Shown here: positions 8,645 through 34,538 of the stretch, in pieces
Layout of the letters: each line of letters begins with the position of its first letter
How positions within the stretch are numbered: the first letter of the stretch is position 1
NCBI GenBank assembly: GCA_051953135.1
Contig: JBQCJC010000419.1
Span: forward strand, 1 to 43,350
DNA: 43,350 nucleotides
From: Thermoanaerobaculia bacterium
GTDB lineage: Bacteria > Acidobacteriota > Thermoanaerobaculia > Gp7-AA8
Direction of reading: 5' to 3'
Notes under the pieces: generated by a model
Seen by the model: the letters and a program-made list of their open reading frames with translations, nothing else
Told to the model about the DNA's origin: nothing
Database searches by the model: none
Position numbers and translations under genes: made by a program

Positions 8645-10888
8645 ATGATCGGCCGATTGCGAAGGTTGGCGTTCGCCGTCGTGGCAGTATTGCTAACGAG
8701 TGCAATTTGCGCGGACGAGCCGCACAAACGCGCGTTGCTAATCGGAATTAACGATTATTCGGCTACACGTCTGCGAGGCACGAAAAAATCCTCACCTCCT
8801 GATCGCTCGTGGTCGAATCTCGACGGTTCGGTCAATGACGTCCGAATGATGCGCGAGATTCTCGTCGCTCGTTTCGGATTCGCCGATGCCGACATCCTGA
8901 CGCTAACGGACCAGAGCGCGACACGCGCCGCAATCACCAACGCGATCCAGTCGCAGCTCATCCAGCGCTCACGAAAAGGCGACATCGCTTTCTTTTATTA
9001 TTCAGGGCACGGCTCGCAGGTGCGTAACTCGGCATCCGCGGAAGACGACAAGCTGGACGAGTCGTTCGTTCCTGCCGATTCGCGCAATGACGAGCAGGAC
9101 CTGCGTGACAACGAACTTCGCGACTTCTTCAATCGCATTCTGGATCGCGGGGCGCGGCTCACCGTGGTCTTTGATGCCTGCCACAGTGGCTCTGGTGCGC
9201 GCGGCCTCAATGGAGGATTAAAGCAACGCAGCGTCAATCCCGACCTACGCGATGTCGCCGATCCTTCTGTCGCACCGAGTCCGGAAGATCGGGGAGCGTT
9301 AATTCTTAGCGCAACTCAGGATTTTGATCAGGCATACGAAACCATCGATTCCGAAGGCCGGATTCGCGGCGCGTTTTCCTGGGCTCTTGCTCGCGCAATT
9401 CGCGACTCACAACCTGGCGAACCCGCGAGCGACACGTTCATTCGCGCACAAGCGCACCTGCGCGCGGAAATGCCCGCGCAGGTCCCGGTGCTCGCCGGAA
9501 ATGTGGAAGCTCGGCTTAGTCCGTTTCTCTCATTGAACACACGACGCGGCGCAAATCCGCATACGCCGTCTGTGGCAATTGAGAAGGCTTTGCCCGATGG
9601 AAGCTACCTTCTCGTCGGCGGCTGGGTAAACGGTCTAACGGTCGGCAGTCGCTTGCGCGTATCAGGATCAGCACCTGTAGAGCTCGAGGTCACGTCGCTC
9701 ATCGGCGCATCACGCGCCACTGCGCGACTGACAACGGCCGTGCGTAGCGCGCTCCCTTCCGGGGCGCTTCTGGAAATCGTCGAATGGGCCGCGCCTCCAT
9801 CGACAAAACTGCGAATCTGGATTCCCACCGCTCCCGATCTCGAAGTCGCGACCGCGGTGAATTTGCGTCGCATCCTGAAAACACCTGGCGTGCGGTGGGT
9901 TGACGATCCCACGGAGACAACACCGACGCATCTTCTGCGCTGGCGGCAGCAAGCATGGGAACGCGTGGCATTCGGATCGATTGTGAAATCGAAATCCGCG
10001 CTCAGTGATCCGTTTCCGCGCGACAGTACGGTATTTATTCAGTTGCCGGCGACGATTGCGCTCGCAAGCGAATTCGACGATGTCGAGGGTGTCGAGCTCG
10101 TTGACGGGCCACAAACGGCCGAATACATCCTCGCGGGCCGGGTCAGGAATCGAGAAGCCGAGTACGCGTGGATTCGTCCGCGCGCGCTTGGCCGGGATCG
10201 CGAAGGCAGCGCCATGCCGGCCCGTAGTGAATGGGTCGCGGCAAATCAATCGACGACCGCCCTCGTCCTTCGCAATGACCTGCGCCGCATCCGGCGCGTG
10301 CACGCGTGGCACGACCTCCCATCACCACCGCCTGAACATTTATCCCACTACACGGCAGAAATTCGCGATGCTGAAACGCACGAGCTGGTGACGAACGGCC
10401 CGCTCATCGCACCGAAGACGTATCAAGTAGTGCTGCGACTCCGCTCCCCTGTACCGCTCGATCCACTGTATCCCCGTTATTACTACGTGTTCATGATCGA
10501 CAGTTACGGAAAGGGGGTTCTCCTTTTTCCGAAACGCGAGCGCGGCTCTGTTGAAAACCGGCTGCCACAAACGCGAGTCGCGTCACAACCGCTCGCGGAA
10601 CCGCCCGGAGAAATCCCCTTAGGCTCTCCCGCCACTTTCTTCGTTACCGAACCATACGGCCTGGACGCCTACTTTGTGCTGTCGACTGACGAAGCACTGT
10701 CGAGCACAGACAGTCTCGAATGGGATGGAGTGCGCAGCGCACGCGCGGCTCCACAGAGCGCGCTGGAGCAACTCTTATCCGAATCGTTACACGGGGGGCG
10801 AGGCGGAGAACCAATCCGAATGCCACCGACCTGGTCGATCGAAAAAATCATCGTCGAATCAATGGCGCCGAGGAGAAATCGACAATGA
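8645..10888 (+). CDS. Secreted caspase-family (peptidase C14) protein with long C-terminal extension (DUF4384-like segment)
   Basis: 747 aa. Signal peptide MIGRLRRLAFAVVAVLLTSAICA. ALLIGINDYS; FFYYSGHGS (His122, nt 9008..9010); VVFDACHSGSGARG (Cys179, nt 9179..9181). Near the C-terminus, YYYVFMIDSYGKGVLLFP resembles the DUF4384 signature often fused to caspases (from memory). Confidence 0.88.
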   Translation: MIGRLRRLAFAVVAVLLTSAICADEPHKRALLIGINDYSATRLRGTKKSSPPDRSWSNLDGSVNDVRMMREILVARFGFADADILTLTDQSATRAAITNAIQSQLIQRSRKGDIAFFYYSGHGSQVRNSASAEDDKLDESFVPADSRNDEQDLRDNELRDFFNRILDRGARLTVVFDACHSGSGARGLNGGLKQRSVNPDLRDVADPSVAPSPEDRGALILSATQDFDQAYETIDSEGRIRGAFSWALARAIRDSQPGEPASDTFIRAQAHLRAEMPAQVPVLAGNVEARLSPFLSLNTRRGANPHTPSVAIEKALPDGSYLLVGGWVNGLTVGSRLRVSGSAPVELEVTSLIGASRATARLTTAVRSALPSGALLEIVEWAAPPSTKLRIWIPTAPDLEVATAVNLRRILKTPGVRWVDDPTETTPTHLLRWRQQAWERVAFGSIVKSKSALSDPFPRDSTVFIQLPATIALASEFDDVEGVELVDGPQTAEYILAGRVRNREAEYAWIRPRALGRDREGSAMPARSEWVAANQSTTALVLRNDLRRIRRVHAWHDLPSPPPEHLSHYTAEIRDAETHELVTNGPLIAPKTYQVVLRLRSPVPLDPLYPRYYYVFMIDSYGKGVLLFPKRERGSVENRLPQTRVASQPLAEPPGEIPLGSPATFFVTEPYGLDAYFVLSTDEALSSTDSLEWDGVRSARAAPQSALEQLLSESLHGGRGGEPIRMPPTWSIEKIIVESMAPRRNRQ

Positions 10889-13800
10889 GATGGATCCGTT
10901 GTCTGATCGCTACCCTGTTATGTCTTCCCACGATCGTTCGTGCAGACGAAGCATTCGAGAACATTACGAAAATGATCGCCGCTGGGCGAGCATTGGAAGC
11001 ACGGCAGATGCTCGCCAGCACGCTCGATTCATATGTGACCGCTCACGACGAAACGAAAGAGGCGGTCACTCTTGTACTCCTCGGGCTTACAGACGCATCG
11101 CTGCACAATGTAGAGGCGGCTCGCAACGAGTTACAAGACGCGAGCAAGAAATTCATCGCGCATCGTGACTACATGGGCGCGTGGTTTTCTCTATTCGCGC
11201 TTTCGACGGTGGAATACAACGAAGGACGCACCGATCGCGCACTGGAGATTCATAAGCAAGTCATCCAATTGCTCGATGAAGCCGAGCGTCCTGAGGCATC
11301 GTTCAAACTCGACTCGCTGGCCATGCTGGCGCCGGCATTTGGCGCCGACCCGTCATCACTGTCAATGATGACCTCGGCCCCTGAAATCGTGAAACCGTTG
11401 ATGCTCCGGTTTCTGATCATTGCGTCGTCTGACGCGTATGGAGCAGCTCTGATCGAGCACGGCGATCTCGACGCCGCGGAAGAACAACTCACTCGCGCTG
11501 CCGATGCCGCATTGATGTTCGGCGGATTATTCGACGGAACGGTCTATACGCATCTCGGGGCATTAAGACAGAGTCAATGGCGACTTCAGGAAGCAAAGGA
11601 GTGCTACCTCAAGGCTCTCAAAGGCGCCAAAACCATGGGCGCGATATTTACACCAACGATTGCCGGCCGTTTCGATCCATTTTTCGAAGTCAATGTCATG
11701 ACTGACCTCGCGACCCTCGAGGTCCTGACCGGACATCTGGATGAGGCACTGGCATGGAATGACAAGGCATTACAGGCCACTCGGGCGATGTCTAACCCAA
11801 AACGCGAAACGGCACTGCTCGAAAAGCGCGCAGACCTGCTGTCAAACGGCGGTCAATACGACGCGGCCTTGACGCTTTACCAGGAAGTACTGGAGCTCGC
11901 GACCAAAAGTGACGACCTTTATCGCCAAGGCTCCGTTCGAGGCAGCCTGGGTGCCGTGTGCATGTACCTCGGCAATTACGGTAGTGCTACGAAACACTTC
12001 GAGAAATCGATCGAGATCTATCAAAAACTCAAAGAGCCATTTCTCGAAGCGCCAAGCTGGATCGCGCTCGCCGAAACGTATCTCGCACTGGAAGACCATG
12101 GCAACGTTCAGAACGCGCTCGACAACGCGCGCAAAATGGCCGCGCAGAGCGGATTCGGTGCGGCCGCTGCACTGGTGGACGTAATCGCGGCATCGAAAGA
12201 TGTACACGAAGGACGCGGAACACTCGAAGACGTCGATACGACCATGCGCGCGATGATCAACCGACCGGACCTGAAGTCCTACGCACTGAGTCAGGGGATG
12301 CGCGACTTCCTGGCGAATATGTCGACGATCGGGAGTCGCGGCGGCGAAATCAAAGTCCCCGAACAAATGAGGTCCCTCTTCGCGCCGATGGCCGCCGCAT
12401 TCCAGGGAAAAGCGGCCTTACAACGAGGCGAGTACGCCAAGGCGCGAAAACTCTTCGAAGACGGATTCGCAACAAGCTCGAGTCACGATCACCGCGCGGG
12501 CCTGCAGGCTCTCGTTGGAACTGCCTACTGGCTCGAAGGAAAACCCGATGATGCAATCGCAGCGCTTCGCAAAGCCGCCGATGAGCTCGAACAATCTGCA
12601 TTCGATGTGAAGGTCGAGGAGCTGCTGGCAGGGTATCTGGGCAGCAATCGTCGCGTCTATTACGACCTGCTTCTGGAAATGCTTTCCAGACAAGGTAAGG
12701 GCGACGATGCATTCGCGCAGGCCGAACGCGCACGCGCACGCGCGTTTCTGCAATTGATCGGCAATCACCGCCTCAACCCCAATCGCAGTGCCGATCCGCA
12801 ACTCGTCGCCGAAGCGGAAAACGTGCGTGCCGGCATTGTCGACAGAGAAAACGCAATCGCCGCGGCGCGGCCAGAAGCACTAAAGCGTCTCAACGAGGAT
12901 CTCTCGCGCGCACGTCAGCATTATCGGTCGCTTACGATTCGCGCGAAGGCCACAAGCTCCGAATACGCCGACGTGATTAACGTCGCGCCGGTCGAGATCC
13001 AAACCATTCGCCTCGACTTGCCGGAAGATACGACCCTCATCAGCTATTACGTTTCACCCACTGCCGTTCATGCCTGGGTTGTCGACCGCGAGTCGGCGAA
13101 TTACGCGCGGCTTCAGATCGATACAAACAGCCTCCGCAGAATCGCTTGCTGGGCGAATTCATTCGGCGCCAACGAATCTCGTGGAGCGTCAGCAATTCCC
13201 TGCGGCGAGAGTAACGGCAACCCAGCGGATTTCGCGTATGACGCTTTGATTGCACCGCTTCATAAACACATCCGTCATCAGAAACTGGTCATTGTGCCGC
13301 ACGGCGTCCTTCATTACGTGCCATTCGCCGCAATGCACAATTCGAGCAGCAATCACTATCTCGTGCAGGACTTCACGCTGACCTATGCGCCGAGTGCGAG
13401 TGCGCTGCGGTTCCTTCGCGCGAAAGAAACGCCAGTCCGGGGAACCGCGCTCGTCCTGGGAGATCCGACCACGCCGATCTCAGGACTTAAACCTCTATCC
13501 GGTGCACGACAGGAAGCCGCCTTTGTCGCCAACCTGCTCGGCACGTCGGCTTACGTCGGAAACGACGCCCGTGAGAATAAACTCTACGGCGTCGGCGGTA
13601 ACGTGGACCTCGTGCATATCGCAGCACATGGGATTTATGACCCGGTGAATCCGCTATTCAGCCGAATTGCGCTGGCCCCGGGCGATAAAACGGACGGCAG
13701 CCTCACTGTGCACGAGATCCTCTCATCCGTTGATTTGTCGGGGGTGAATCTCGTAGTGCTGTCCGCCTGTCGCAGCGCGGTCGGCGAACGCAGCGGCGGC

Positions 13801-14082
13801 GACGAAATCGTCGGCCTGACGCGTGCGCTCTTATATGCCGGAACACCGGGCGTCATTTCCACGCTGTGGAACATCGATGACGCGGCCTCCGCGGGGCTCA
13901 TGAATGAGTTCTATCGCCGGCTCACAAGCGGAGTTTCCGTCGCCGAGGCACTGCGCGCGGCTCAGGTGAGCGTTCTCGAGAGCAAGGATTTTTCGGATCC
14001 GAAGTATTGGGCCGCCTTCACGCTCAATGGGGATCCACAAGGTCGCTGGCATCGCGCCGATGCCACAGGCAACAACGAATAA
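10885..14082 (+). CDS. Secreted TPR-repeat / CHAT-domain protein
   Basis: ORF 10720..14082, trimmed to ATG 10885 (ATGA overlap with the preceding stop). This gives the signal peptide MRWIRCLIATLLCLPTIVRA. Many TPR-like helical repeats. CHAT motifs: KLVIVPHGVLHYVPFAAM, ALVLGDP, LVHIAAHG (His), LVVLSACRSA (Cys), GTPGVISTLWNIDD. Confidence 0.88.
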   Translation: MRWIRCLIATLLCLPTIVRADEAFENITKMIAAGRALEARQMLASTLDSYVTAHDETKEAVTLVLLGLTDASLHNVEAARNELQDASKKFIAHRDYMGAWFSLFALSTVEYNEGRTDRALEIHKQVIQLLDEAERPEASFKLDSLAMLAPAFGADPSSLSMMTSAPEIVKPLMLRFLIIASSDAYGAALIEHGDLDAAEEQLTRAADAALMFGGLFDGTVYTHLGALRQSQWRLQEAKECYLKALKGAKTMGAIFTPTIAGRFDPFFEVNVMTDLATLEVLTGHLDEALAWNDKALQATRAMSNPKRETALLEKRADLLSNGGQYDAALTLYQEVLELATKSDDLYRQGSVRGSLGAVCMYLGNYGSATKHFEKSIEIYQKLKEPFLEAPSWIALAETYLALEDHGNVQNALDNARKMAAQSGFGAAAALVDVIAASKDVHEGRGTLEDVDTTMRAMINRPDLKSYALSQGMRDFLANMSTIGSRGGEIKVPEQMRSLFAPMAAAFQGKAALQRGEYAKARKLFEDGFATSSSHDHRAGLQALVGTAYWLEGKPDDAIAALRKAADELEQSAFDVKVEELLAGYLGSNRRVYYDLLLEMLSRQGKGDDAFAQAERARARAFLQLIGNHRLNPNRSADPQLVAEAENVRAGIVDRENAIAAARPEALKRLNEDLSRARQHYRSLTIRAKATSSEYADVINVAPVEIQTIRLDLPEDTTLISYYVSPTAVHAWVVDRESANYARLQIDTNSLRRIACWANSFGANESRGASAIPCGESNGNPADFAYDALIAPLHKHIRHQKLVIVPHGVLHYVPFAAMHNSSSNHYLVQDFTLTYAPSASALRFLRAKETPVRGTALVLGDPTTPISGLKPLSGARQEAAFVANLLGTSAYVGNDARENKLYGVGGNVDLVHIAAHGIYDPVNPLFSRIALAPGDKTDGSLTVHEILSSVDLSGVNLVVLSACRSAVGERSGGDEIVGLTRALLYAGTPGVISTLWNIDDAASAGLMNEFYRRLTSGVSVAEALRAAQVSVLESKDFSDPKYWAAFTLNGDPQGRWHRADATGNNE

Positions 14083-14653
14083 GAGTAAGCCGCCGGTGCG
14101 TTCGAAATTCGTGGCTGTACCGCTAATCGCAATCGCGCTGTTCTCATGCAATGGTGAAAAGCGCCGACTGACAGCGGAGATCGAGACCATGGAGCATCGT
14201 CGAGCTTCGCTTCAGCGAAGGCTCGATGAGAGGCGTAGCGATCTTCGTGAGTCCGAGGATCAGCTGCACGCACTGCAGCGCGAGCTCACTACACACAATA
14301 CCGAGATTAACGAATTCATCCTCCAGCATCGCATGGCGGCGACCTGCCTTCGTGCCGCGCAAATCACGCTTGGCGATCACAATGAATATTCACAACAGCT
14401 GGCCCGCGCCGCGGGTTGGGGTACTGTACTTTGCACCGTGGCGTTGCTCGATCAGCGATTCGCTCGTGAAGTCACGATAGTCGCCAATCGCGTCAATACA
14501 GCCGATGCCCGTGCGCGCGACCTGAAAGAGCAAATTCAGCGCGCGCAGCAGGCGGTCGATGGTCAGCAAGCACGAGTGCGGGACGACGAAGCCGCACTGG
14601 ATCAGGTTTCGGCCGATATCGGCGATCTCGAATACCGCCTGTTGCAGCAGTGA
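14060..14653 (+). CDS. Coiled-coil protein, probable lipoprotein
   Basis: ORF 14027..14653. ATG 14060 overlaps the CHAT stop by 23 nt; the alternative GTG 14096 lies 13 nt after it. Hydrophobic leader FVAVPLIAIALFSC is lipobox-like. The rest is heptad-rich and Arg/Glu/Gln-rich (RRLDERRSDLRESEDQLHALQRELT...). Confidence 0.55.
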   Translation: MPQATTNKSKPPVRSKFVAVPLIAIALFSCNGEKRRLTAEIETMEHRRASLQRRLDERRSDLRESEDQLHALQRELTTHNTEINEFILQHRMAATCLRAAQITLGDHNEYSQQLARAAGWGTVLCTVALLDQRFAREVTIVANRVNTADARARDLKEQIQRAQQAVDGQQARVRDDEAALDQVSADIGDLEYRLLQQ

Positions 14654-14680
14654 CGCGACCGTCGCAGGTCATTTCGTGTC

Positions 14681-16111
14681 TTGTCTGATGTGAAATTCGC
14701 GGCAGCGCTTGCTTTTGTCCTGTTGTTCGCCGGCAGGCTTGCAGCAAAGGAAGGGCTGGACCTCGTCGTACTCCTCGATCGCTCCGCCAGCATGGCCAGC
14801 GATCCGCGCCTTCCCAGCCTGTTTCTGCAAATGACCGTCGATTTGCTGGCACGGAATGCAGCGGCATCTCACGTCGAGCATCGCCTCGCGATCGTCACGT
14901 TCAACCGCTCTGCCACCGTCTCGCTGGAGTTCACAACGGTTGACAGCGACAGTGCGTCGAATCTGCGCAAGCAAATTGCCGCCATGTCATTGCTTCCACG
15001 CGGAGAAACCGATCTGCTGAAGGCATTGACTCGGGCCGACGGTCTATTTCAATCGTTAGACTCGGCCACTGAACGTCGTCGAGCATTACTTCTGGTAACC
15101 GATGGTGTGCCCTATCTCCGCGGCGCGAATCTGCGTGAGTATCACGCGGACTTACGCGCCTACGTCGCTTCACACTTCGTCGGCGTCACGTTGAATGTTC
15201 TGCTCTCGGGTTCCAGCGGACTGTCACTCTTACGATTCTGGCGAACTCTGACGCCACTCGTTCAACATACCCGTCGCACCGTGCCGGACGTCATTGCTGC
15301 GGGCCACCTGGCGTTGAGCCGCCTCGCGGGAACACAGGTGTCGGAAAGCGCATCCACGGTGAAGCAAGGGGAGCCTGACGTTCTAATCGTGCCTCCCTAT
15401 CTCGATGTTGTTGTATTTGACGTGTTTCGCGCATCAAGCGAGATCACGGTGGAAATTTACCAGCCCGGTGCAACAACACCGTTGCGCAATGGAGTCGCGG
15501 GCGTCGAAGCATTCGGAATCGGCGATCTTCTTTCGACCGTGGTCGTGCCTCGCCCTATCGCAGGTGTCTGGAAAATCCGAAAAAGCCACGGTAATGCGCG
15601 CGTGAGAATTCTATCCGAGCAGTTCTTTCCGCGTGGACAACTACTGCACCCGCCGTCCAATACCACCATCGGCGAGGGACGCTTAACGATTATCTACAGC
15701 GTACGCAACGGCGACCACAGCGCACTGCGTGAATTAACGGAATATCCCATCGAGCTCCAGTTGACCCTCGGCTCACCCGATGGTGCACAGAAATCGATCA
15801 TCATGCTGCGCGACAAAGTCTATGGGCCCTCGACCTTTCGCAGCAGCACTCCGGAAGATTGTTCAATCACTGGTCGCTACTGGACAGACGTTCGCATCAC
15901 GACCACGGATCTCCACGGGCTTCGCTTCGAGCTCTTTCGCGATCGATGGTCAGGATTTACCGTTGCGGCTAAGGCACAACCGGCGAGCGCATTGCACCTC
16001 TCGCGACCGGCGATTACACGGGAATCGATTGATCTTCGCTGGATGCTCCTGACCTTGCCGGTCGGCGTGGTCATCGCGATCATCGTGATTACAAGAGCCC
16101 GCAAACCTTAA
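14681..16111 (+). CDS. Secreted von Willebrand factor A (vWA) domain protein with C-terminal TM anchor
   Basis: 476 aa, TTG 14681 or GTG 14690 start. Signal peptide VKFAAALAFVLLFAGRLAA. MIDAS DRSAS (nt 14777..14791) within LVVLLDRSASM, then GETDLLKAL and LLLVTDGVP. C-terminal TM WMLLTLPVGVVIAIIVI followed by TRARKP. Confidence 0.8.
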   Translation: MSDVKFAAALAFVLLFAGRLAAKEGLDLVVLLDRSASMASDPRLPSLFLQMTVDLLARNAAASHVEHRLAIVTFNRSATVSLEFTTVDSDSASNLRKQIAAMSLLPRGETDLLKALTRADGLFQSLDSATERRRALLLVTDGVPYLRGANLREYHADLRAYVASHFVGVTLNVLLSGSSGLSLLRFWRTLTPLVQHTRRTVPDVIAAGHLALSRLAGTQVSESASTVKQGEPDVLIVPPYLDVVVFDVFRASSEITVEIYQPGATTPLRNGVAGVEAFGIGDLLSTVVVPRPIAGVWKIRKSHGNARVRILSEQFFPRGQLLHPPSNTTIGEGRLTIIYSVRNGDHSALRELTEYPIELQLTLGSPDGAQKSIIMLRDKVYGPSTFRSSTPEDCSITGRYWTDVRITTTDLHGLRFELFRDRWSGFTVAAKAQPASALHLSRPAITRESIDLRWMLLTLPVGVVIAIIVITRARKP

Positions 16112-16121
16112 GCCGGCTGCC

Positions 16122-17846: not shown

Positions 17847-17856
17847 GAGCGTCTCA

Positions 17857-25274: not shown

Positions 25275-25286
25275 CGGAGAACGAGC

Positions 25287-26552: not shown

Positions 26553-28327
26553 TGAGACCGCGCGCACTAGCGTTCGTCGTCCTCGGCTTTTTCGCTGCGA
26601 CCGCATCCGCGCAGCAGCTCACGCCGGGCATACCACTCGCCGTACGTATCCTGTACGACAACTCCGGAAGCATGTACCCGGGGTATCGGCCTCCAGGCAC
26701 GCCTGATCGCATGAGTCGACAGGAACTGGGTGCACGCTATTTTCATCAAACGCCACAATTCGCCGAATGGCTCAATGACTTTGTTCAACGCCAGACAATC
26801 GTCGATGGCGGAACGGTCGGTATGTGGACCTTCACGTCCTACGGATCCTTTTCTCCGTCCGACATTCAGGAAGTTCATCCGCCACGACCGATTGCAGAGT
26901 TCAATGTTCAGCGCGCGATTGCAGCATTTCCTCCTGAAACGGGTGATCGCACGTACCTGCGCGAAACGATCGGGGAGTTCACACGCGATTTCACGGGTCT
27001 GGTCTGGCTAATCACAGACAACATTGTCGAGAGCAATGCCGGTGAACCTGATGCCGGCGTACAGAACTTCTTTGAGTCACTCGCAAGCGGTCGGAATCTC
27101 CGCTCCGTTCATCTTTTCAAATACACATTCAATGATGGCGGGCTCTCCGCGGCAATCGCCGTATACGGGATTCTCGTCTCGAACAAGGACGTTCCGTCTA
27201 ACACGCTCGGCTTTTACGACGGCAAGTTCCGCCGGCTTGCGGATGCGAAACGAGTCCGTGGAACAGGCGATTTGTTTCCGGGTCACGAGTATCTCAAGCT
27301 GAAGGACCTGCATGTCGATCCGCTTCGTCCCGAGCTCCGCCTCGTGCTCGCCGAGGGCGACAATGGATCATTTCGGGAAGGACAAAGTGTAAAGCTCGAC
27401 GTTCAGGGCGCCATTCGCAGCTACCTGACACAGCACACAGTCACGGGCGGGCGATACGAGCTCGCGATTGCTTCGCCGTTTCAACCAGAAGACTGGGCGG
27501 CCAGGAACCTGGGCGCACAATCGCTGCAAGCCGGCCAATTTGATCCCGCGTCGGCCGACCTCGAGGACGAAATTCCTCCCAACGGCTCACGCTCCATCAA
27601 CGCGACGTTGCAATCACGCCAGCCGGTCTCGTTCTCGGTAAGTGGTCTTACACAATGGTTGCGACTCGCCTGGAATGGCGCGACGGTTCGATACAACGGC
27701 ACAGTGCGAATGTCGTTTACCGGAGTCACTGTGCGGCTCGAACAACGCCGCATGGCCGGCATCTTCGGAATCGACCACGCGACCTCGGCCTTCGAATTTC
27801 AGAACGTCAGCACTCTTCCGACGGTCACGCCGAGCGTGGTCCCAGTGAGCTTCGTATTGCGCACGGGACCGTCCAGGACCGCGATTCTCGTTTTGGTCCT
27901 CGCGATTCTCTGCGCACTCCTTACGTCGCTTGCGTTCGTCTTGTCCCGCAAGCGCATCTTTCGGATCGCTCTGTCCCGAGAACCGGAACGAGTGGTCGCG
28001 CTCGGCCCACTTCGCACTCATGACATCTTGCTCGATGGGCAGTGTATTGGCCGTCTATCGCGAGGAGTTTTCCGTGCCTACACGTTCAATCCGTCATCGG
28101 CTAACGATTGCACAATCAGTGCGACGCCGGAGCTCGACGTATGGGACGTAAAACTCGGCGATGGCACATTGCGCCGATTGTCGATCAAGGCAGAAGGCGG
28201 AGGACGCTCCAGCACTGTCAATCCGGGAGCGGCCAATCCTCGGGCCGCACCCGCGCCTCCTCCCCCATCGCCTAGAAACATCCCGCCTCCACTACCCGGC
28301 CGCTCGCCGCGGATCGGCAAACCCTGA
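26552..28327 (+). CDS. Secreted vWA-domain protein with TM anchor and cytoplasmic tail ending in a polyproline segment
   Basis: ORF 26432..28327, trimmed to ATG 26552 (TAATG overlap). Signal peptide MRPRALAFVVLGFFAATASA. MIDAS DNSGS (nt 26657..26671) within RILYDNSGSM, then VWLITDN. TM TAILVLVLAILCALLTSLAFVL followed by SRKR. Tail ends AAPAPPPPSPRNIPPPLPGRSPRIGKP. Confidence 0.75.
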   Translation: MRPRALAFVVLGFFAATASAQQLTPGIPLAVRILYDNSGSMYPGYRPPGTPDRMSRQELGARYFHQTPQFAEWLNDFVQRQTIVDGGTVGMWTFTSYGSFSPSDIQEVHPPRPIAEFNVQRAIAAFPPETGDRTYLRETIGEFTRDFTGLVWLITDNIVESNAGEPDAGVQNFFESLASGRNLRSVHLFKYTFNDGGLSAAIAVYGILVSNKDVPSNTLGFYDGKFRRLADAKRVRGTGDLFPGHEYLKLKDLHVDPLRPELRLVLAEGDNGSFREGQSVKLDVQGAIRSYLTQHTVTGGRYELAIASPFQPEDWAARNLGAQSLQAGQFDPASADLEDEIPPNGSRSINATLQSRQPVSFSVSGLTQWLRLAWNGATVRYNGTVRMSFTGVTVRLEQRRMAGIFGIDHATSAFEFQNVSTLPTVTPSVVPVSFVLRTGPSRTAILVLVLAILCALLTSLAFVLSRKRIFRIALSREPERVVALGPLRTHDILLDGQCIGRLSRGVFRAYTFNPSSANDCTISATPELDVWDVKLGDGTLRRLSIKAEGGGRSSTVNPGAANPRAAPAPPPPSPRNIPPPLPGRSPRIGKP

Positions 28328-28349
28328 ATTACACGGAAAGGAGCTCTCC

Positions 28350-28730
28350 ATGAACGGTCGTATCGCGGTCGGATTGTCTTCGCTCATATCGGCACTGCCC
28401 GCCATCGCTGCAGATCCGGCACCCGCACTCGAACAATCGGACAACATCGTGCTGCGCGGCGCCGGGATTTTTCTGGTGCTCGTAATGATCTGGTTCGTTC
28501 TCTACAAAGTCCTGTATCCCTTTCTGCTGCGGTATTACCGCGATGGGTTTTGTAAAACTGTCTTCTGGAATCTCTTTTCGCTTTATGCCCTCACCTGGAT
28601 TTTCGTGTCGTTGTACGTGGTGCTGGATTTCGGCTTCTACTGGGGATGGCTGCCATGGCTGGCCGCATTCCTCGGCGCATGGTGGTTGATTTCCGGCGTC
28701 GTGCTGTTGCTGCGGCGCGTGCCCGCCTAA
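28350..28730 (+). CDS. Small aromatic-rich integral membrane protein
   Basis: ORF 28161..28730, trimmed to ATG 28350 (GGAAAGGAG upstream). 126 aa. Signal-like MNGRIAVGLSSLISALPAIAA plus three hydrophobic segments (IFLVLVMIWFVLY, LFSLYALTWIFVSLYVVL, LPWLAAFLGAWWLISGVVLLL). Confidence 0.65.
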   Translation: MNGRIAVGLSSLISALPAIAADPAPALEQSDNIVLRGAGIFLVLVMIWFVLYKVLYPFLLRYYRDGFCKTVFWNLFSLYALTWIFVSLYVVLDFGFYWGWLPWLAAFLGAWWLISGVVLLLRRVPA

Positions 28731-28755
28731 TCACAACGATGGTCAGGGAGAACCG

Positions 28756-31700
28756 ATGAACCTCGATCCCATTCTGCAGGCCAGTCTTCCACGCGTACTC
28801 GTGAACGACATGCCCGTCGGGCCAACGCTTCTCATTGGACTCGGCGGTACCGGCAAGGAAATTCTGTTGCGCCTGAGACGCATGATCGTCGAGCGCTACG
28901 GCGCACTCAACCGGCTTCCGTTTCTGAGATTCATGCATCTCGACACGGACAAGAATCAAACCGCGGCCGAGCAATACGATCTTCGCAGCGCGGATGACCC
29001 ACTGTATCGAGACGTGCAGTTCACCGTCGCCGAACGCCTGGATCTCACGATCACTGGTGGTACCGGACGCTATGTGCAGCATCTGAATAACTACCCGAAC
29101 GTGAAGCGATGGTTTCCGGCGAACGGGAAAATCGCCGAGCTCGGCGATCTCCACGAGGGCGCCGGCCAGGTACGAATCGCCAGCCGCCTGGGATTTTTCG
29201 ATGCGTCGAATCACCAGAAAATCACCGCGCGCCTCGAGCAGTGCCGCCGCGAATTGAGCGACGCGGCGATTCTTCAACAACGCGGATTCACGTTCAGCGC
29301 GGAACGCACTCGCGTCGTGATCGCGTCATCACTGGCTGGCGGCACGGGTAGCGGCACGTTCCTCGATATGGGATTCCTTGTCAGTCGCTATTTTCCCGAG
29401 GCCGAGCGCGTTGGGATTCTGTTGCTGCCGGCGTTTTTTACGGGATATCCCGGCGGAGAACGCGTGCGCGCCAACGGCTATGCGGCCCTCATGGAGCTCA
29501 ACCACTACACCTTCGGACATTCGTTCCACGCGGATTGGACAACACACGACAGCGCAGTGCTTCCTCCGCCACCGTTCAGCAGTACGTATCTGATCGACGG
29601 CCGCAATGAGGCGGGCCTGGCGATCAACTCCGGCGGCGGTAAGGAATATGACGCGTATCGAATGGTCGCCGAGTTTCTGTATCAGGACTACTCGATTGGT
29701 GCGTTCGCCGGAATGAAGCGCGCCACGCGAGTCAATCTCGAGCAATTCAATCTCAACGTCTATACCCACAATTTTCTCAATCAGGCATTGCGCAGTACCG
29801 AGGTGCACCAGAAGGCGATCGTCGGAGATTCCTATCCGTGCCGCTTCGGATCGTTTGGGCTGGCCACGCTGTCATTCCCAACAGAACGCGTACAGAACGC
29901 ATGTGCCTGCAAACTCGCGACGAAGATCCTCGATTACTGGCAAAAGAGCGCGCTCGATGATCCGCTCGAGCACCTCTTCATGAAAGTGCTCGCGGACGAA
30001 ACTGTTCAGTGCGCACAAGGACAATACGAGCGTCGTGACGGCGGCGGCATCATCGATCGCACGGATATCGAAGATGCCTTGATGATTCATGACGCTGGCA
30101 GCAGCAGGACATTCGATAGTTACCTGTGGCAGAAGGCACAGGCGCTTCGCGTCGAATTGCAGGCAACGCCCAATGGGGAGAAAGCGGCGTGCCTCCGCAC
30201 CCGACGTGCGGAGCTCGATCAGTATCTCGCCAAAGAGGATTCTGAGAATCCGGAGGAGTGGGGCCTCGGGATTCGCGTGCTCGACTCCAACATGCGCACG
30301 TATATCGAACGCGTGAAGGAGGCGATCGAAGTCAAGGCCGCGGAGCTGGCGGACAACCCACAGTACGGCGTCACCTATACGCTATCGCTTCTTCGTGAGC
30401 TGAAGGCGCTGCTGCGAAATGAAAACTTCCGCTATTTACCGTATTTCGACGCGCAAATCCCTCAGTGGCGCGATCGTGTCCAGTATTACTCGCATGCGCT
30501 CGACCAGATCCAACTCGACGTGGGCCGGCACGAGGCGCAATTTCTTTTCCGTTCTGCCGACCTCCATTGGGACTACGAAAAACTCGTGGGCGACGATGGC
30601 GATGAGGATCGCGGCGTTTTCTTCAATCACTTCTCCGCTCGTGTCGGAAAGCAGGTCGCGAAGCGCGGTCGCCAGATCTGCGAGGAATTAGACCGCTTCC
30701 TCGGCGCGGATCATAGCGGCGCCGACGGATTGCTGGGCCGCTACTACGAACTGCTCGTCGGATTTGCGCGCGTCAAAGAGCATCTGCAAAAGAAAGAATC
30801 GTATTTCGCACGGCCTGAGAAGTCGGAGCTCGTCGTCACATTGTTCCGCGACGGCGACGTTGAGGATTGGTATCGCACCTGGATCGGAGATAGCGTCCGC
30901 GAAGAGCAGACGCTCAATGCCGTCGGCAGCACCATTCTCGCGGATGTTTTTCAGGTACCAGGCGTCACGGCTGCATTCGAAAAAATTCAGCGCACTCCGC
31001 CCGAAACGGTCGAGGAAATGATCCTCACCAAATGTCGCGATTACATCATCGGACAGAAAAAGCAGCCCGAAGCTCTAACGATGCTCTTCGACGCCAATCG
31101 CATGAGCGAACGAGAGCGAATCGATAAGATCCGTCAGGTCTATCGATTGTCGAAGGTGTGGCTGGCCCCGGCGGAACAAGGCATTGAGCACACTGGTCTG
31201 CCCCCGGTGAAAACGCAGCAGAGGCCATTCCTGATTGGCTTCGACGACGCCACGAATCCGCAGCGCGTCGCGCAATTCAAGGAGCTGATCCAGAACGCGC
31301 AATCCCCCGGCGATACGCAGCCGAGTTTCCAGAACATCGGCGAACAGCACCGCGGCACGATCGTTTTCTACCACGAGCTGGCAGGTGTGCCCGCGTTCTA
31401 TCCAAGCTCCGTGACCGCGCCTCTGGGGATGCGCGCCGCATACAACGCGTTTCCCGAAAAGGAGGAACTGCATACTGACAAGAATCGCTTCCAGTTTGCG
31501 GATCTCATTCCGAAACAAACGGCCGAAGCGCGTCAGTACGCGGAATCATTGCAGGCGTTCGTCCTTTCCCGCGTTCTCGGGCTGCTGAACGTGCATGCGC
31601 TGCCGTCTGAAAGCGATCAACTCGCATACCGCTTCTCTTATCCACATGAGGACAGGCTGATCGTCACGGACGTGAATCTCGGCGGAGAAGCCCACGCCGT

Positions 31701-32676
31701 CGATTTTCTCTATCGCGACAGACGGAGCGATCACGAAACGCATCGACGCTATCTGATCAAGAAGGTCGAAAAAACCATTCAGCTTTTGCGCGAACAGAAA
31801 AAGCTGGCGGTTTACCGGCTCCTGCTCGAGTTCTACATCAAAAAGGTCTACCCCCCGCGAATTCTCTCCGCGAGCGGGATTCCCGACCTGACGATGATTC
31901 AGTATTCACCGGAATATGCGGTTCTGGACGAAGCGCGAACGCGCCTGACACAGATCATTGGGGACATCGCCGAACAGGAGAAATTCCGCGCACAGTTCCG
32001 GACGATGTTCAATTACGAAGTCGATCACGAGTTCACCTATCACGAGTTTGCCGTCGCATTGCAGCCGTATTGCAAAGTCGCCGGAAAGTATGCGGACCAG
32101 AAAGAAGACTCCGTCGTGCATGAAAGCACCGATTGGCGCGACATCTTCGCTCTCGATCCGGCGAAGCTCGATAAGAGCGCACAGAAAGATGTTCCCGCCG
32201 TTCGCTCCGCGGCTCCGTTTGGAGAGCGCCCCTGCCCGCGCTGTTCCAGACCGGTCGATCAACGAGCCATTTACTGTACGAGCTGTCGCAACACGTTCGC
32301 CGCGCATATCCCGTGTCCGCATTGTCAGGAAAAACGTGTTCCTGACGATTTGACGCTCTGTTGGAAATGCGGCGAGCCGATGCGCGAAGGCAGCGCGGTC
32401 GAATGCGCACAGTGCTTCACCTTCAGTGGGTTTGACGACGAATTCCCCTGCCCCAATTGTGGCTATGACCCGAAGTCAGGACCGCCCCAGCCAGTCTTCG
32501 GCTCCCCGATTCTGCCGGTAAAAGAGCGGCCTGCACCCGCGGAGCCTGTGAGCACGACGGCGAGCACGGCCGCGTCTGTCGCGTCGGCGGTACTCGTTCA
32601 ATGCGCGATTTGCGAATCCCATGTCCCGCCGGATGCCCATTGCTCGATTTGTGGTCATGACCTGGAGGCGAGGTGA
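28756..32676 (+). CDS. Giant tubulin/FtsZ-superfamily GTPase (bacterial 'tubulin-like' family) with four C-terminal Zn ribbons
   Basis: 1306 aa, AGGGAG 5 nt upstream. N-terminal Gly-rich loop LLIGLGGTGKE (nt 28837..28860). Tubulin signature GGTGSG (nt 29338..29355) within VVIASSLAGGTGSGTFLDMG. Large helical middle region. Cys-rich C-terminus (see the next feature). Confidence 0.82.
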   Translation: MNLDPILQASLPRVLVNDMPVGPTLLIGLGGTGKEILLRLRRMIVERYGALNRLPFLRFMHLDTDKNQTAAEQYDLRSADDPLYRDVQFTVAERLDLTITGGTGRYVQHLNNYPNVKRWFPANGKIAELGDLHEGAGQVRIASRLGFFDASNHQKITARLEQCRRELSDAAILQQRGFTFSAERTRVVIASSLAGGTGSGTFLDMGFLVSRYFPEAERVGILLLPAFFTGYPGGERVRANGYAALMELNHYTFGHSFHADWTTHDSAVLPPPPFSSTYLIDGRNEAGLAINSGGGKEYDAYRMVAEFLYQDYSIGAFAGMKRATRVNLEQFNLNVYTHNFLNQALRSTEVHQKAIVGDSYPCRFGSFGLATLSFPTERVQNACACKLATKILDYWQKSALDDPLEHLFMKVLADETVQCAQGQYERRDGGGIIDRTDIEDALMIHDAGSSRTFDSYLWQKAQALRVELQATPNGEKAACLRTRRAELDQYLAKEDSENPEEWGLGIRVLDSNMRTYIERVKEAIEVKAAELADNPQYGVTYTLSLLRELKALLRNENFRYLPYFDAQIPQWRDRVQYYSHALDQIQLDVGRHEAQFLFRSADLHWDYEKLVGDDGDEDRGVFFNHFSARVGKQVAKRGRQICEELDRFLGADHSGADGLLGRYYELLVGFARVKEHLQKKESYFARPEKSELVVTLFRDGDVEDWYRTWIGDSVREEQTLNAVGSTILADVFQVPGVTAAFEKIQRTPPETVEEMILTKCRDYIIGQKKQPEALTMLFDANRMSERERIDKIRQVYRLSKVWLAPAEQGIEHTGLPPVKTQQRPFLIGFDDATNPQRVAQFKELIQNAQSPGDTQPSFQNIGEQHRGTIVFYHELAGVPAFYPSSVTAPLGMRAAYNAFPEKEELHTDKNRFQFADLIPKQTAEARQYAESLQAFVLSRVLGLLNVHALPSESDQLAYRFSYPHEDRLIVTDVNLGGEAHAVDFLYRDRRSDHETHRRYLIKKVEKTIQLLREQKKLAVYRLLLEFYIKKVYPPRILSASGIPDLTMIQYSPEYAVLDEARTRLTQIIGDIAEQEKFRAQFRTMFNYEVDHEFTYHEFAVALQPYCKVAGKYADQKEDSVVHESTDWRDIFALDPAKLDKSAQKDVPAVRSAAPFGERPCPRCSRPVDQRAIYCTSCRNTFAAHIPCPHCQEKRVPDDLTLCWKCGEPMREGSAVECAQCFTFSGFDDEFPCPNCGYDPKSGPPQPVFGSPILPVKERPAPAEPVSTTASTAASVASAVLVQCAICESHVPPDAHCSICGHDLEAR
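32233..32661 (+). other. Array of four CxxC...CxxC zinc-ribbon modules at the C-terminus of the tubulin-like protein
   Basis: CPRCSRPVDQRAIYCTSCRN; CPHCQEKRVPDDLTLCWKCGE; CAQCFTFSGFDDEFPCPNCGY; CAICESHVPPDAHCSICGH. A Pro-rich spacer separates modules 3 and 4. Confidence 0.8.
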
Positions 32677-33455
32677 TCATGTCGCGCCGAAAGCCTGCTC
32701 ATGGCGCATTCGTAATCGCATTGTTGTTCGTCGCCGGCCTCTCCGTGACGGCTTTCGCCTTCGTCGATCTGCAATGGACGCATGCGATTTTCGTTAAAGG
32801 CGCCGGATTCGGGCGCACCGCGGCGAAACCTTCGTCTGTAGACCCGAAAAAGGTACAGAACCTTCGACAAAGCATTCTGAACGTCCGCGCTCAATGCAGC
32901 GGCGGCGAGAACACCGGCACAGGCTTTATCGTGAAATCGGGTTTCGTGGCCACGGCTGCGCACGTGTTAGGCGATCGTCAGTCCTGCACTGGTCCGATTC
33001 GGCTCGTCGATTACAAGGGTCTCGAGCACGTCGCACAACTCGAAGGAATCTCCGAGACCGATGATCTTGCGTTATTGACGATCCCCGACTCCACTCTTCC
33101 TCCATTGAAACTCGCGGACGCTTCGCGCTACGAGTCGTCAACGGACGTCGTGCGACTGGTGACGATCGGCTATCCGCTCGTAGGAAGCGGCGCATCGGAG
33201 CGCGACAGTGCGTCCATGTCAGGCGAAGGAAACCTTTCGCGATTCATTCGCGATCGCAATGTCTTCGTCACGTCCGGATTGAACCTCAACCCGGGTAACA
33301 GCGGCGGTCCGATTTTCGTGCGTGACAACTGGACCGTGCTGGGGATTGCGCGAGCGAAATTGCCTACAGACGTTGGCGAAGGCATTGGCTTCGTTGCATC
33401 GATTCGCGCATTCGAGAGTTTCTTTCGAGAGAAAACTGGACAGGAGCTGCGATGA
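32673..33455 (+). CDS. Membrane-anchored trypsin-like (S1/Trypsin_2-type) serine protease
   Basis: 260 aa, GTG 32673 (GTGA overlap) or ATG 32679. TM/signal AFVIALLFVAGLSVTAFAFV. Catalytic contexts: GTGFIVKSGFVATAAHVL (His), DDLALLTI (Asp), GNSGGPIF (Ser at nt 33300..33302). Confidence 0.85.
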   Translation: MIMSRRKPAHGAFVIALLFVAGLSVTAFAFVDLQWTHAIFVKGAGFGRTAAKPSSVDPKKVQNLRQSILNVRAQCSGGENTGTGFIVKSGFVATAAHVLGDRQSCTGPIRLVDYKGLEHVAQLEGISETDDLALLTIPDSTLPPLKLADASRYESSTDVVRLVTIGYPLVGSGASERDSASMSGEGNLSRFIRDRNVFVTSGLNLNPGNSGGPIFVRDNWTVLGIARAKLPTDVGEGIGFVASIRAFESFFREKTGQELR

Positions 33456-34513
33456 GTACCGCTCGTAGTGACACAAAGGCGGCCACGCTTCTCGTTCTTC
33501 TGATTGCCATTGGGCTCGCGCTGCTCACAATCCCGTGGTTTCTCACGCCGCCGGCGTTTCTGGAGCTCGCACTACGTGATGCCGTATTTGGCGCGGATTT
33601 GAGCAAACAGGTCATTCAGATTACTGACGACGCGACTGGCAAGTCGCTCCAGGCAAGCGTGTCGAAATCCGGCAATTCATTCATTGCTCACATCGGAAGG
33701 ATCAACAGCGGCAAAGGTACGTACACGGCGCGATTGACTGGCTACAAACCAGGCGTCGCACGCATCACCGCGGGCGCACTGGAACGAGTGCGAGTCCCGA
33801 TCGAGCTACGACCGACATTCGGGCGCGTCGAACTGTCTACCGTCAATGCAACGCTCAATGACACGGCAATCGCCGCAACTGTGAAAACGGGGCCGCAGAC
33901 GCTCTCTCAGGATTCGCCGCGCGTGCTCGTCTTCGATTTACCGCCCGGTAAGCATCGATTTACTGCCGACGCGAATGGATTTTGTCCGTCGGAGCGTGAA
34001 TTCATCGTCGTCGAAGGGAAGGTGACGAAAGGCGTCTTCCCTCTGTCACCGGATCTGACGAACGAGGAGCTCGCACGCTTCGTCCTCGGCTGGAGAAACG
34101 AGCCCCGCGATCTCGATGCCCATTTCATGAAATCGAATGCGTTCGGGATCCCGAACCCCGGCCATCTGTTCTGGCGACAGAAAACAGCGTGGTTCGCAAA
34201 TGGCGATGTCTTCGCGCGGCTCGACGTGGACGAGCTTTACCCGGGTCGATATGAAACCGTCACCGTCCGGGCGAACGCAGTCGGAGACTTCCGCTACCTC
34301 GTGCATCGTTTCCAGGGATTCGGGACGATCAACGACGCGGAGCCGATCGTACAGGTCTACACGAAGGGCTGTCAGATGCGAACGTTCACTCCGCCCCCGG
34401 CGTGTGCGGACGATGTATGGATCGTTGCAAACCTTCAATACAGCCACGGCAATCTTCAACTGAACGAGATTCGCACCTGCGAGCCCGCAACCGGTCCGGG
34501 CGTAATCAAATGA
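33452..34513 (+). CDS. N-terminally anchored protein with PEGA/carboxypeptidase-regulatory-like beta-sandwiches and a YfaP/DUF2135-like C-terminal domain
   Basis: 353 aa, ATGA overlap. TM AATLLVLLIAIGLALLTIPWFL. TYTARLTGYKPGVARI and KHRFTADANGFCPSEREFIV are PEGA-like. C-terminus FVLGWRNEPRDLDAHF...ARLDVDELYPGRYETVTV resembles the L.W....DLDLH...D...G.GPE pattern of DUF2135. This assignment is tentative. Confidence 0.6.
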   Translation: MSTARSDTKAATLLVLLIAIGLALLTIPWFLTPPAFLELALRDAVFGADLSKQVIQITDDATGKSLQASVSKSGNSFIAHIGRINSGKGTYTARLTGYKPGVARITAGALERVRVPIELRPTFGRVELSTVNATLNDTAIAATVKTGPQTLSQDSPRVLVFDLPPGKHRFTADANGFCPSEREFIVVEGKVTKGVFPLSPDLTNEELARFVLGWRNEPRDLDAHFMKSNAFGIPNPGHLFWRQKTAWFANGDVFARLDVDELYPGRYETVTVRANAVGDFRYLVHRFQGFGTINDAEPIVQVYTKGCQMRTFTPPPACADDVWIVANLQYSHGNLQLNEIRTCEPATGPGVIK

Positions 34514-34538
34514 CGTCGGCGGGATATAGTCCCGCGCC

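Follow-up and report, generated by a model that had tools for sequence, protein, structure and literature searches.

A composite operon in a Thermoanaerobaculia bacterium built around a conserved Hsp70, GrpE-like and tubulin-like core

We analyzed a 43,350-nt stretch of DNA from a Thermoanaerobaculia bacterium (GenBank assembly GCA_051953135.1, contig JBQCJC010000419.1, positions 1 to 43,350; hereafter the window), in which positions 8645-34513 carry a tightly packed gene run that encodes an Hsp70, a GrpE-like protein, a tubulin-like GTPase and several proteases. The locus is a composite operon: a mobile, membrane-spanning core, g8 to g16, is conserved, and lineage-specific and variable genes are added to it. 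We consider it probably a relative of the predicted bacterial conflict systems.

Gene run and products of the core

The run extended unbroken on the plus strand between a minus-strand FG-GAP gene at its 5' border and a convergent minus-strand gene at its 3' border. A sequence-only reading of the same DNA had counted 18 consecutive plus-strand genes; the run was indeed uninterrupted, but it contained 16 genes when start codons were chosen to fit the upstream stops. All nine overlapping junctions listed in that reading were found where it had placed them, and its limit of about 27 nt on intergenic gaps was also correct, as the widest gap within the run was 27 nt. Six junctions were 4-nt ATGA or GTGA overlaps (10885, 19751, 22597, 24018, 32673 and 33452), two were 1-nt TGATG or TAATG overlaps (18579 and 26552), and the one at 14060 was a 23-nt overlap that is contingent on the start chosen. 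The counts of promoter-like and terminator-like motifs across the locus were not above those of shuffled sequence and thus neither helped nor hurt the case for one transcript. The GC content was 0.57-0.60 over window positions 2000-35000 (from the CHAT genes to g16) as against 0.61-0.64 in both flanks, a mild dip that is compatible with horizontal acquisition. Pfam searches supported the C14, TPR plus CHAT, vWA, Pkinase, HSP70, Tubulin_2 and Trypsin_2 assignments made earlier. The genes of the conserved block, with the frequent but not universal g9, are as follows.

g8, 19751-22600, plus strand: core; 949 aa, zinc ribbon, Ig-like domain, Hsp70 nucleotide-binding domain (NBD) and beta substrate-binding domain (SBD-beta)
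g9, 22597-24021, plus strand: frequent, not universal; 474 aa, degenerate paralog of the Hsp70 NBD
g10, 24018-25274, plus strand: core; membrane-anchored coiled-coil protein with a GrpE-like C-terminal domain, transmembrane segment (TM) at 88-106
g11, 25287-26552, plus strand: core; zinc ribbon and PQQ-type beta-propeller, weak PQQ_2 and DZR matches
g12, 26552-28327, plus strand: core, system-specific family; exported alpha/beta domain, beta-sandwiches, TM, cytoplasmic beta domain and Pro-rich tail
g13, 28350-28730, plus strand: core; small membrane protein with three hydrophobic segments (3-TM)
g14, 28756-32676, plus strand: core; 1306 aa, FtsZl1/Tubulin_2 GTPase with a large conserved middle region and four C-terminal zinc ribbons
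g15, 32673-33455, plus strand: conserved in the close clade; membrane-anchored trypsin-like serine protease with an N-terminal TM (Trypsin_2, E 1e-17)
g16, 33452-34513, plus strand: last gene; N-terminal TM and PEGA/CarboxypepD_reg-like beta-sandwich, weak CarboxypepD_reg match

The tubulin-like assignment of g14 was made because of its Pfam Tubulin_2 match (E 3.7e-63, residues 25-392, in addition to DZR) and its signature motifs. GGTGKE (T1), GGTGSG (T4) and eight CxxC pairs were invariant in 20 homologs; no tubulin, FtsZ or TubZ was matched when the family profile was run against PDB sequences. The homologs formed 672 clusters, and conservation covered the entire protein in many Acidobacteriota as well as some Desulfobacterota. 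A 55% identical tubulin-like gene was found solo, without partners, in an 8.8-Mb Thermoanaerobaculaceae genome (L002/L010, 9559-14449), with a 153-aa Peptidase_C14 fragment directly 5' of it; this locus may be a decayed system. About 45 Ignavibacteria/Bacteroidota species (L027-L069, L080 and L082) encoded a Tubulin_2 protein of ~1130 aa with about 25% identity to g14, and no homologs of window genes were detected adjoining any of these loci. The one copy scanned, in L034, had a weak SHOCT-like C-terminal match, and in this locus, the only annotated one of the group, the gene lay beside EF-P, AccB, AccC and a FabI-like gene. We rejected the Ignavibacteria loci as instances of the same system, the gene being solo among housekeeping genes; this group looks like a different, solo subfamily.

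Pfam matched g8 to HSP70 (E 4e-33) and to DUF1573/HYDIN Ig domains. It aligned with residues 36-497 of DnaK (E 6e-26) and ended 17 residues past the end of the alignment. Since this alignment halts at the end of SBD-beta, g8 lacks the helical lid. Its ATP-binding motifs were intact (GIDFGTTNS and VFDYGGGTLDV) and the length of the family was fixed at ~950 aa. On the other hand, g9 had no Pfam HSP70 match by itself. The g9 family profile matched DnaK residues 137-414 (E 1.9e-5), there was a faint MreB match, and the phosphate-binding motif was degenerate (IDIGGRV); g9 is probably an inactive Hsp70 paralog. It was not detected in L014/L088, L015 or L020. In L014/L088, from a 'Deltaproteobacteria' metagenome-assembled genome (MAG), the g9 slot held a second GrpE-like paralog (L088, 12804-16910), so that GrpE-like genes of 639 and 705 aa with a common GrpE-like C-terminal domain stood in tandem.

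The GrpE assignment of g10 holds at the level of the family, as judged by profile matches. Pfam GrpE (PF01025) was matched by 13 of 14 family members, always in the same C-terminal domain and at best with E 7.4e-10, and the ortholog in the distant locus L091 carried a weak GrpE annotation. The window protein alone scored E 0.035 and 14.2 bits against a curated threshold of 25.8, its residues 351-415 covering positions 103-164 of the 165 in the GrpE model. Comparison by hhalign with residues 135-193 of E. coli GrpE gave a weak match (P 8.5e-4). Against PDB sequences, the full-length g10 profile returned coiled-coil noise and the C-terminal profile repeat-protein noise. Of the Hsp70 ATPase pair with its own exchange factor proposed earlier, g8 and the family-level GrpE therefore stood, but the second member of the pair, g9, is degenerate.

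A relative of g8 also occurred outside the core. Two further loci (L089, 1294-5225; L090, 3029-6960) encoded a small TIR protein followed by a 1183-aa protein that combined HATPase_c_4 with a g8-like Hsp70, was 51% identical to g8 and had a weak TIR_2 match. PIN/PhdYeFM toxin-antitoxin pairs lay on both sides of these genes, a setting suggestive of a defence module that stands by itself and uses the Hsp70 clade of g8.

The g11 family was found in all core loci as well as in the distant architectures, and its L091 ortholog matched Beta-prop_ACSF4/PQQ_2. For g12, an AlphaFold2 (AF2) model with a predicted local distance difference test score (pLDDT) of 81.6 began with a signal peptide and an alpha/beta domain; beta-sandwiches and a TM helix came next, ahead of a beta domain in the cytoplasmic part (residues 464-591). 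An exhaustive profile search recovered only 110 relatives/representative clusters among 1.84 billion proteins. The family has an invariant motif resembling a metal ion-dependent adhesion site (MIDAS), DxSGSM...T...TDN, formed by D36, S38, S40, T134 and D156. However, none of 14 members matched Pfam vWA, the domain model (pLDDT 86.7) had no Foldseek match in the PDB at E<=1e-3, and the full model returned arrestin- and transglutaminase-like beta-sandwich matches with a template modelling score (TM) of about 0.13. Comparison by hhalign with g4, the vWA protein encoded upstream, gave a probability of 0.8%. The idea of g12 as a second vWA thus remained unproven after all these searches, leaving the MIDAS-like motif alone. 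Of the two MIDAS-containing vWA proteins claimed earlier, g4 was upheld (vWA E 1e-9, intact MIDAS) and g12 was left unsupported by Pfam, Foldseek or hhalign. The small g13 protein was always encoded between g12 and the tubulin gene.

The catalytic residues of the g15 family were well kept: His97 in 12 of 13 members, a conserved Asp, and Ser210 in all 13. The trypsin gene followed the tubulin gene in Aminicenantes and in Desulfonema, and g16 was kept after it; the Desulfonema ortholog of g16 had a weak PEGA match.

Signal peptides, lipoboxes and TM anchors placed g1, g2, g3, g4, g6, the ectodomain of g12, g15 and g16 outside the cytoplasmic membrane, while g8, g9, g11 and g14 were predicted to be cytoplasmic, as were the g5 kinase domain and the GrpE-like domain of g10. 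The trans-envelope arrangement suggested by the sequence-only reading is in agreement with this predicted topology, which spans the membrane with the proteases and MIDAS-type domains outside and the NTPases inside. Its mention of single-pass membrane connectors was also borne out, since many products had a signal peptide or one TM segment.

Conservation of the core and its changing neighbours

We scanned species-representative genomes with an alignment of the tubulin-like protein and mapped all window proteins onto the recovered loci. The order g8-g16 was kept in Thermoanaerobaculia, Holophagales, Aminicenantes and 'Deltaproteobacteria'/Desulfobacterales (Desulfobacterota-type) MAGs. In Aminicenantes the identity was 41% for the tubulin-like protein and 24-41% for its partners, and the g8-g16 order was also present in about 15 further genomes. 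The Hsp70 gene was found in 15 of the 18 close-clade loci that had a full upstream flank; L021 starts inside its GrpE-like gene, and its flank is short of the Hsp70 position. Desulfonema magnum had g12-g13-g14-g15-g16 only.

Searches with family hidden Markov models extended this distribution. They detected g11-g12-g14-g8, in permuted order, in Blastocatellia, Pyrinomonadaceae, one WOR-3 MAG and one marine MAG. A Symbiobacteriaceae MAG had g8-g10-second Hsp70-g11-g12-g14, and L091, whose Hsp70 is only 26% identical, had g8-GrpE-propeller-g12-g13-tubulin-vWA. Together, g8, g10, g11, g12 and g14 were recovered by the family models in Blastocatellia, Pyrinomonadaceae, WOR-3, Symbiobacteriaceae, the marine MAG and L091, with the gene order partly permuted. 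A marker set of six families (Hsp70, GrpE-like, zinc-ribbon propeller, g12, g13 and tubulin) was present in at least four phyla, and this six-family core reached Blastocatellia, Pyrinomonadaceae, Symbiobacteriaceae and WOR-3 with a patchy, cross-phylum distribution. The neighbourhood comparison that had been proposed for the tubulin-like, Hsp70 and GrpE-like genes therefore came out in favour of their association: they are syntenic across phyla and hence not a chance juxtaposition.

The genes upstream of g8 behaved differently, and they are listed here together with u1 and u2, which lie ahead of the run.

u1, 2240-5584, plus strand: accessory; CHAT protease, 1114 aa (Pfam CHAT, E 6e-54)
u2, 5588-6658, plus strand: 356 aa, paired with u1 across a 3-nt gap
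g1, 8645-10888, plus strand: exported C14 caspase-like protease, 747 aa (Peptidase_C14, E 6e-24)
g2, 10885-14082, plus strand: variable; exported TPR-CHAT protease, 1065 aa (CHAT, E 1e-69, and TPR)
g3, 14060-14653, plus strand: variable; small coiled-coil protein with a lipobox-like N-terminus (LFSC), weak coiled-coil-type matches only
g4, 14681-16111, plus strand: vWA protein with a signal peptide, intact MIDAS and C-terminal TM anchor (VWA_2 and VWA, E 1e-9)
g5, 16122-17846, plus strand: Hanks-type Ser/Thr kinase with one TM and a helical extracytoplasmic C-terminal region (Pkinase, E 2e-46)
g6, 17857-18579, plus strand: glycine-zipper lipoprotein, weak Gly-zipper_YMGG match, YiaD-like N-terminal match, lipobox ISGC
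g7, 18579-19754, plus strand: beta-rich protein, 391 aa, with a C-terminal TM anchor (369-387)

Catalytic residues were kept in the trypsin, the caspase, both CHAT proteins and the kinase. In u1 both His/Cys dyad motifs were present (HIAAHG and VAACSS), and in g1 His123 and Cys179 were intact behind a predicted N-terminal signal peptide ending in ICA|DE. The N-terminus of g2 was signal-peptide-like. The MIDAS of g4 (D33, S35, S37, T110 and D141) was invariant among 3 orthologs and its TM lay at 452-470; g5 had K47, HRD143, DFS and SPE, with its TM at 323-341. There was no Pfam match for u2 or g7, and a g7-like protein in L024 consisted of a HYDIN-type Ig domain and a zinc ribbon.

The upstream context of relatives was reached by anchoring on g8 homologs. 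Among the relatives examined upstream, only two, both of Thermoanaerobaculia type (L085 and L086), had the arrangement vWA-kinase-lipoprotein-g7 before Hsp70. Orthologs of g4 and g5 occurred in both, for g4 in these two only, and those of g6 in both and in L018. Orthologs of g2 and g3 were not detected in L085 or L086; the distant L091 system had a g2-like TPR-CHAT gene followed by a gene of ~198 aa upstream. The caspase and CHAT genes changed sides. Orthologs of g1 preceded the core in both L085 and L086 but followed it in L023. The u1-u2 pair also travelled with the system: in L085 it preceded the core, and in L023 it belonged to a u1-u2-u3-g1 block (CHAT-u2-FG-GAP-caspase) located 3' of g16. 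In L086 two minus-strand genes were located between the caspase and vWA genes. The three protease classes named earlier (C14, CHAT and trypsin-like) were confirmed by Pfam, but the position of the caspase and CHAT genes was not fixed between genomes. Similarly, the claim that the 26 kb form a single unit could not be maintained: only g8-g16 were conserved as a block, the vWA-kinase-lipoprotein-g7 genes were found in L085 and L086 alone of the relatives examined upstream, g2-g3 were missing from these two, and the caspase and CHAT genes moved.

Other lineages had different neighbours. In Aminicenantes divergent CHAT, CHAT, TIR-CHAT and TIR genes lay 5' of the core. The Desulfonema system was followed downstream by caspase, vWA and STAND ATPase genes and was also accompanied by PEGA-like, PG_binding, LysM, SPOR and SLT genes. 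An FGE-sulfatase (FGS) gene stood 3' of the core in three lineages (L003, 16798-22809; L014, 17626-20070; L024, 15955-16830), and in L003 an nSTAND1-WD40 protein adjoined the FGE-sulfatase proteins.

Relation to known systems and possible function

Tubulin_2 corresponds to the FtsZl1 family, for which FtsZl1-vWA operons were described that also hold kinases, OmpA-like proteins and a diverged GTPase, and for which a role in membrane remodelling was proposed (Makarova & Koonin 2010, PMC2875224). The present locus resembles these operons in its strong Tubulin_2 protein (g14), MIDAS-intact vWA (g4), Ser/Thr kinase and many membrane proteins. Unlike them, it lacks both the diverged P-loop GTPase and the OmpA-like protein, which are frequent there but not universal. 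There was no OmpA Pfam match in the locus, and the g6 match to YiaD-type lipoproteins was confined to their Gly-zipper N-terminal part. The Hsp70, GrpE, propeller, g12 and g13 partners are absent from the text of PMC2875224, and proteases form no part of the role predicted there; its supplementary tables list DnaK (amb2961) and GrpE (Cagg_1315) beside FtsZl1, undiscussed in the text.

A second group for comparison is formed by GTPase-centric conflict systems defined by a DO-GTPase and GAP1 (Kaur, Burroughs, Iyer & Aravind 2020, PMC7159879), which are predicted to couple nucleoside triphosphate (NTP)-thresholded assembly to variable effectors. Their themes, reportedly non-overlapping, comprise tubulin with two vWA proteins, HSP70 with GrpE and an NBD-only HSP70, and kinase with PP2C and vWA; in one class of GTPase systems, tubulin homologs and an HSP70 occur together with TRAFAC GTPases. 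Like the DO-GTPase/GAP1-N2 systems, the present locus has a tubulin, HSP70 with GrpE and an NBD-only HSP70, a kinase with vWA, zinc ribbons, PEGA-type domains and membrane anchoring. Unlike them, it carries all three themes in one operon, minus PP2C; its hosts are Acidobacteriota and Desulfobacterota-type MAGs, which are not listed there, and its proteases are exported. No DO-GTPase was matched by Pfam at E<=0.01 in the 16 genes or flanks, and neither a DO-GTPase nor GAP1 was found in the distant loci tested or the called genes of L003 and L085-L091. For GAP1, the window proteins had no Pfam match, and the same was true of the genes of L060 and L076 that had been left unassigned. No fn3 match was found in the locus; g8 and the L024 g7-like protein carry Ig-like DUF1573/HYDIN-type beta-sandwiches. 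The sequence-only reading knew of no described system with Hsp70-GrpE and a tubulin-like GTPase at the heart of such a locus. Taken as a claim that none had been described, this was too strong, given the PMC7159879 themes and the DnaK and GrpE genes beside FtsZl1 in PMC2875224. What is new here is the absence of the DO-GTPase/GAP1 pair and the merging of the three themes in one operon.

Two further comparisons concern parts of the locus. As in canonical DnaK-DnaJ-GrpE, g8 has an NBD with intact ATP motifs and SBD-beta, and g10 has a GrpE-like C-terminal domain; in contrast to it, g8 is lidless and has an extra zinc ribbon and Ig domain, g10 is membrane-anchored, and the degenerate paralog g9 is present with no J-domain protein. 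The pairing of the MIDAS vWA g4 with the adjoining Ser/Thr kinase g5 recalls the TerY-P triad of vWA, PP2C and Ser/Thr kinase (PMC11090510), but PP2C is missing here, the vWA is exported and the kinase is transmembrane.

The general conflict-system reading made earlier fits the neighbours of the core (CHAT, caspase, TIR, STAND and FGE-sulfatase), which differ between genomes both in kind and in where they lie. The conserved order of g8-g16, the intact catalytic residues, the predicted topology, the TIR fusions of g8-like Hsp70, the patchy distribution, the mild GC dip and the published predictions of analogous systems also speak for our reading. More specifically, we put at about even the prospect that the locus has an NTP-thresholded conflict or programmed-death role, nearest to the tubulin/HSP70 themes of the DO-GTPase systems, without DO-GTPase/GAP1. 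The mechanism that we envisage would start with g12 (in this genome also the vWA g4 and the kinase g5) sensing a periplasmic or envelope event and relaying it across the membrane. The relayed signal would control GTP-dependent assembly of g14 at the membrane, and the Hsp70/GrpE ATPase cycle would build or dismantle the g14 polymer and so set a threshold. Clustering outside the membrane could then activate the anchored trypsin, with the exported caspase and CHAT proteases as a further output in this genome.

Several observations weigh against this reading. The caspase, CHAT and trypsin proteases are predicted to be exported, which is atypical for intracellular suicide effectors and fits envelope remodelling equally well. 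In L088 ordinary metabolic genes precede the core, and no vWA, kinase, caspase or CHAT gene was found in 10 kb upstream; the protease link is therefore facultative. Pfam detected no J-domain/DnaJ partner for the Hsp70 in the locus. The proposed sensor g12 is not demonstrably a vWA, and a single transcript for the run would follow from gene packing alone. PADLOC-DB 2.0 gave no system-level match; its matches were generic (caspase, TPR, a PD-T4-6-type kinase and trypsin-domain), with nothing for g6-g14 or g16. Likewise, NCBIfam offered no system-level name, and literature searches found no functional study of FtsZl1 or DO-GTPase systems.

The main rival explanation is a housekeeping or developmental machine for envelope and membrane remodelling, in which the polymer would shape the membrane or cell wall, Hsp70/GrpE would assemble it, and the proteases would process envelope proteins. 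This was the original prediction of PMC2875224, and it is consistent with the L088 arrangement, with the fact that most components are membrane-anchored or exported, and with the PEGA-like, PG_binding, LysM, SPOR and SLT genes beside the Desulfonema system. On the other hand, the patchy distribution across phyla, the solo or decayed copies in related genomes, the recurrence of CHAT, caspase, TIR, STAND and FGE-sulfatase genes as variable neighbours, and the TIR fusions of the same Hsp70 clade in toxin-antitoxin islands argue against it, and we regard it as unlikely, if a serious contender.

A narrower form of the conflict reading, which we hold only tentatively and would not expect to prove right, is an autonomous, chaperone-gated cytoskeletal switch across the inner membrane, of an undefined type and not derived from DO-GTPase systems. 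In such a switch g12 would trigger polymerisation, Hsp70 would set the threshold or reset the switch, and a periplasmic cascade of trypsin and then caspase/CHAT would kill the cell or seal it off. If this were true, the locus would be the first example in bacteria of a tubulin polymer that is regulated by an Hsp70 and serves immunity or programmed death. No function has been assigned to the FtsZl1 tubulin homologs since 2010, and the tubulin/HSP70 conflict systems of 2020 are predictions. The six-family marker set, lacking DO-GTPase/GAP1, offers a minimal cassette for transplant and reconstitution. Were the coupling real, a cytoskeletal GTPase and an Hsp70 cycle would together set, across the membrane, the threshold for exported proteases of the caspase-like and trypsin-like kinds. 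This would have implications for the bacterial origins of apoptosis-type machinery and for the way in which Hsp70s became dedicated to single clients.

We also considered the run as a mosaic, a defence or accessory island where genome streamlining has packed together the g8-g16 machine, the module of vWA, kinase and lipoprotein, and the caspase/CHAT genes, each with a function of its own and not joined in one pathway. The absence of g2-g3 from the closest relatives, the u1-u2-u3-g1 block on the opposite side of the core in L023, the two minus-strand genes that split caspase from vWA in L086, and the restriction of vWA-kinase-lipoprotein-g7 to the two Thermoanaerobaculia-type relatives examined upstream all favour such a reading. 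However, the 16 genes of the run share one strand, overlap at nine junctions and are never more than 27 nt apart; the core has protease or TIR genes beside it in at least four lineages that are independent of each other; and the trypsin gene belongs to the conserved block itself. We hold a mosaic to be rather improbable. Finally, it is very improbable that the locus is an ordinary DO-GTPase/GAP1-N2 member whose GTPase and GAP1 genes lie in another part of the genome or can no longer be recognised after divergence: the tubulin, HSP70 with GrpE and NBD-only HSP70, and kinase with vWA themes, the zinc ribbons and the membrane association are as in PMC7159879, but there was no DO-GTPase or GAP1 match as described above, and none of the 16 run proteins has a Walker A motif.

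Genes flanking the locus

Downstream of the run, a Tle1-like/DUF2235 phospholipase gene (E 4e-65) and a gene for a 287-aa protein (34506-36704, minus strand) were convergent with g16, and the 287-aa gene and g16 share 8 nt where their ends meet. Further on, positions 36743-40853 held secretion genes of the HlyD and OEP types. Just upstream of the CHAT genes, positions 892-2171 of the minus strand carried an ECF sigma factor gene (1620-2171) and an overlapping 243-aa open reading frame that had no Pfam match and possibly encodes the anti-sigma factor of the adjoining ECF sigma factor.

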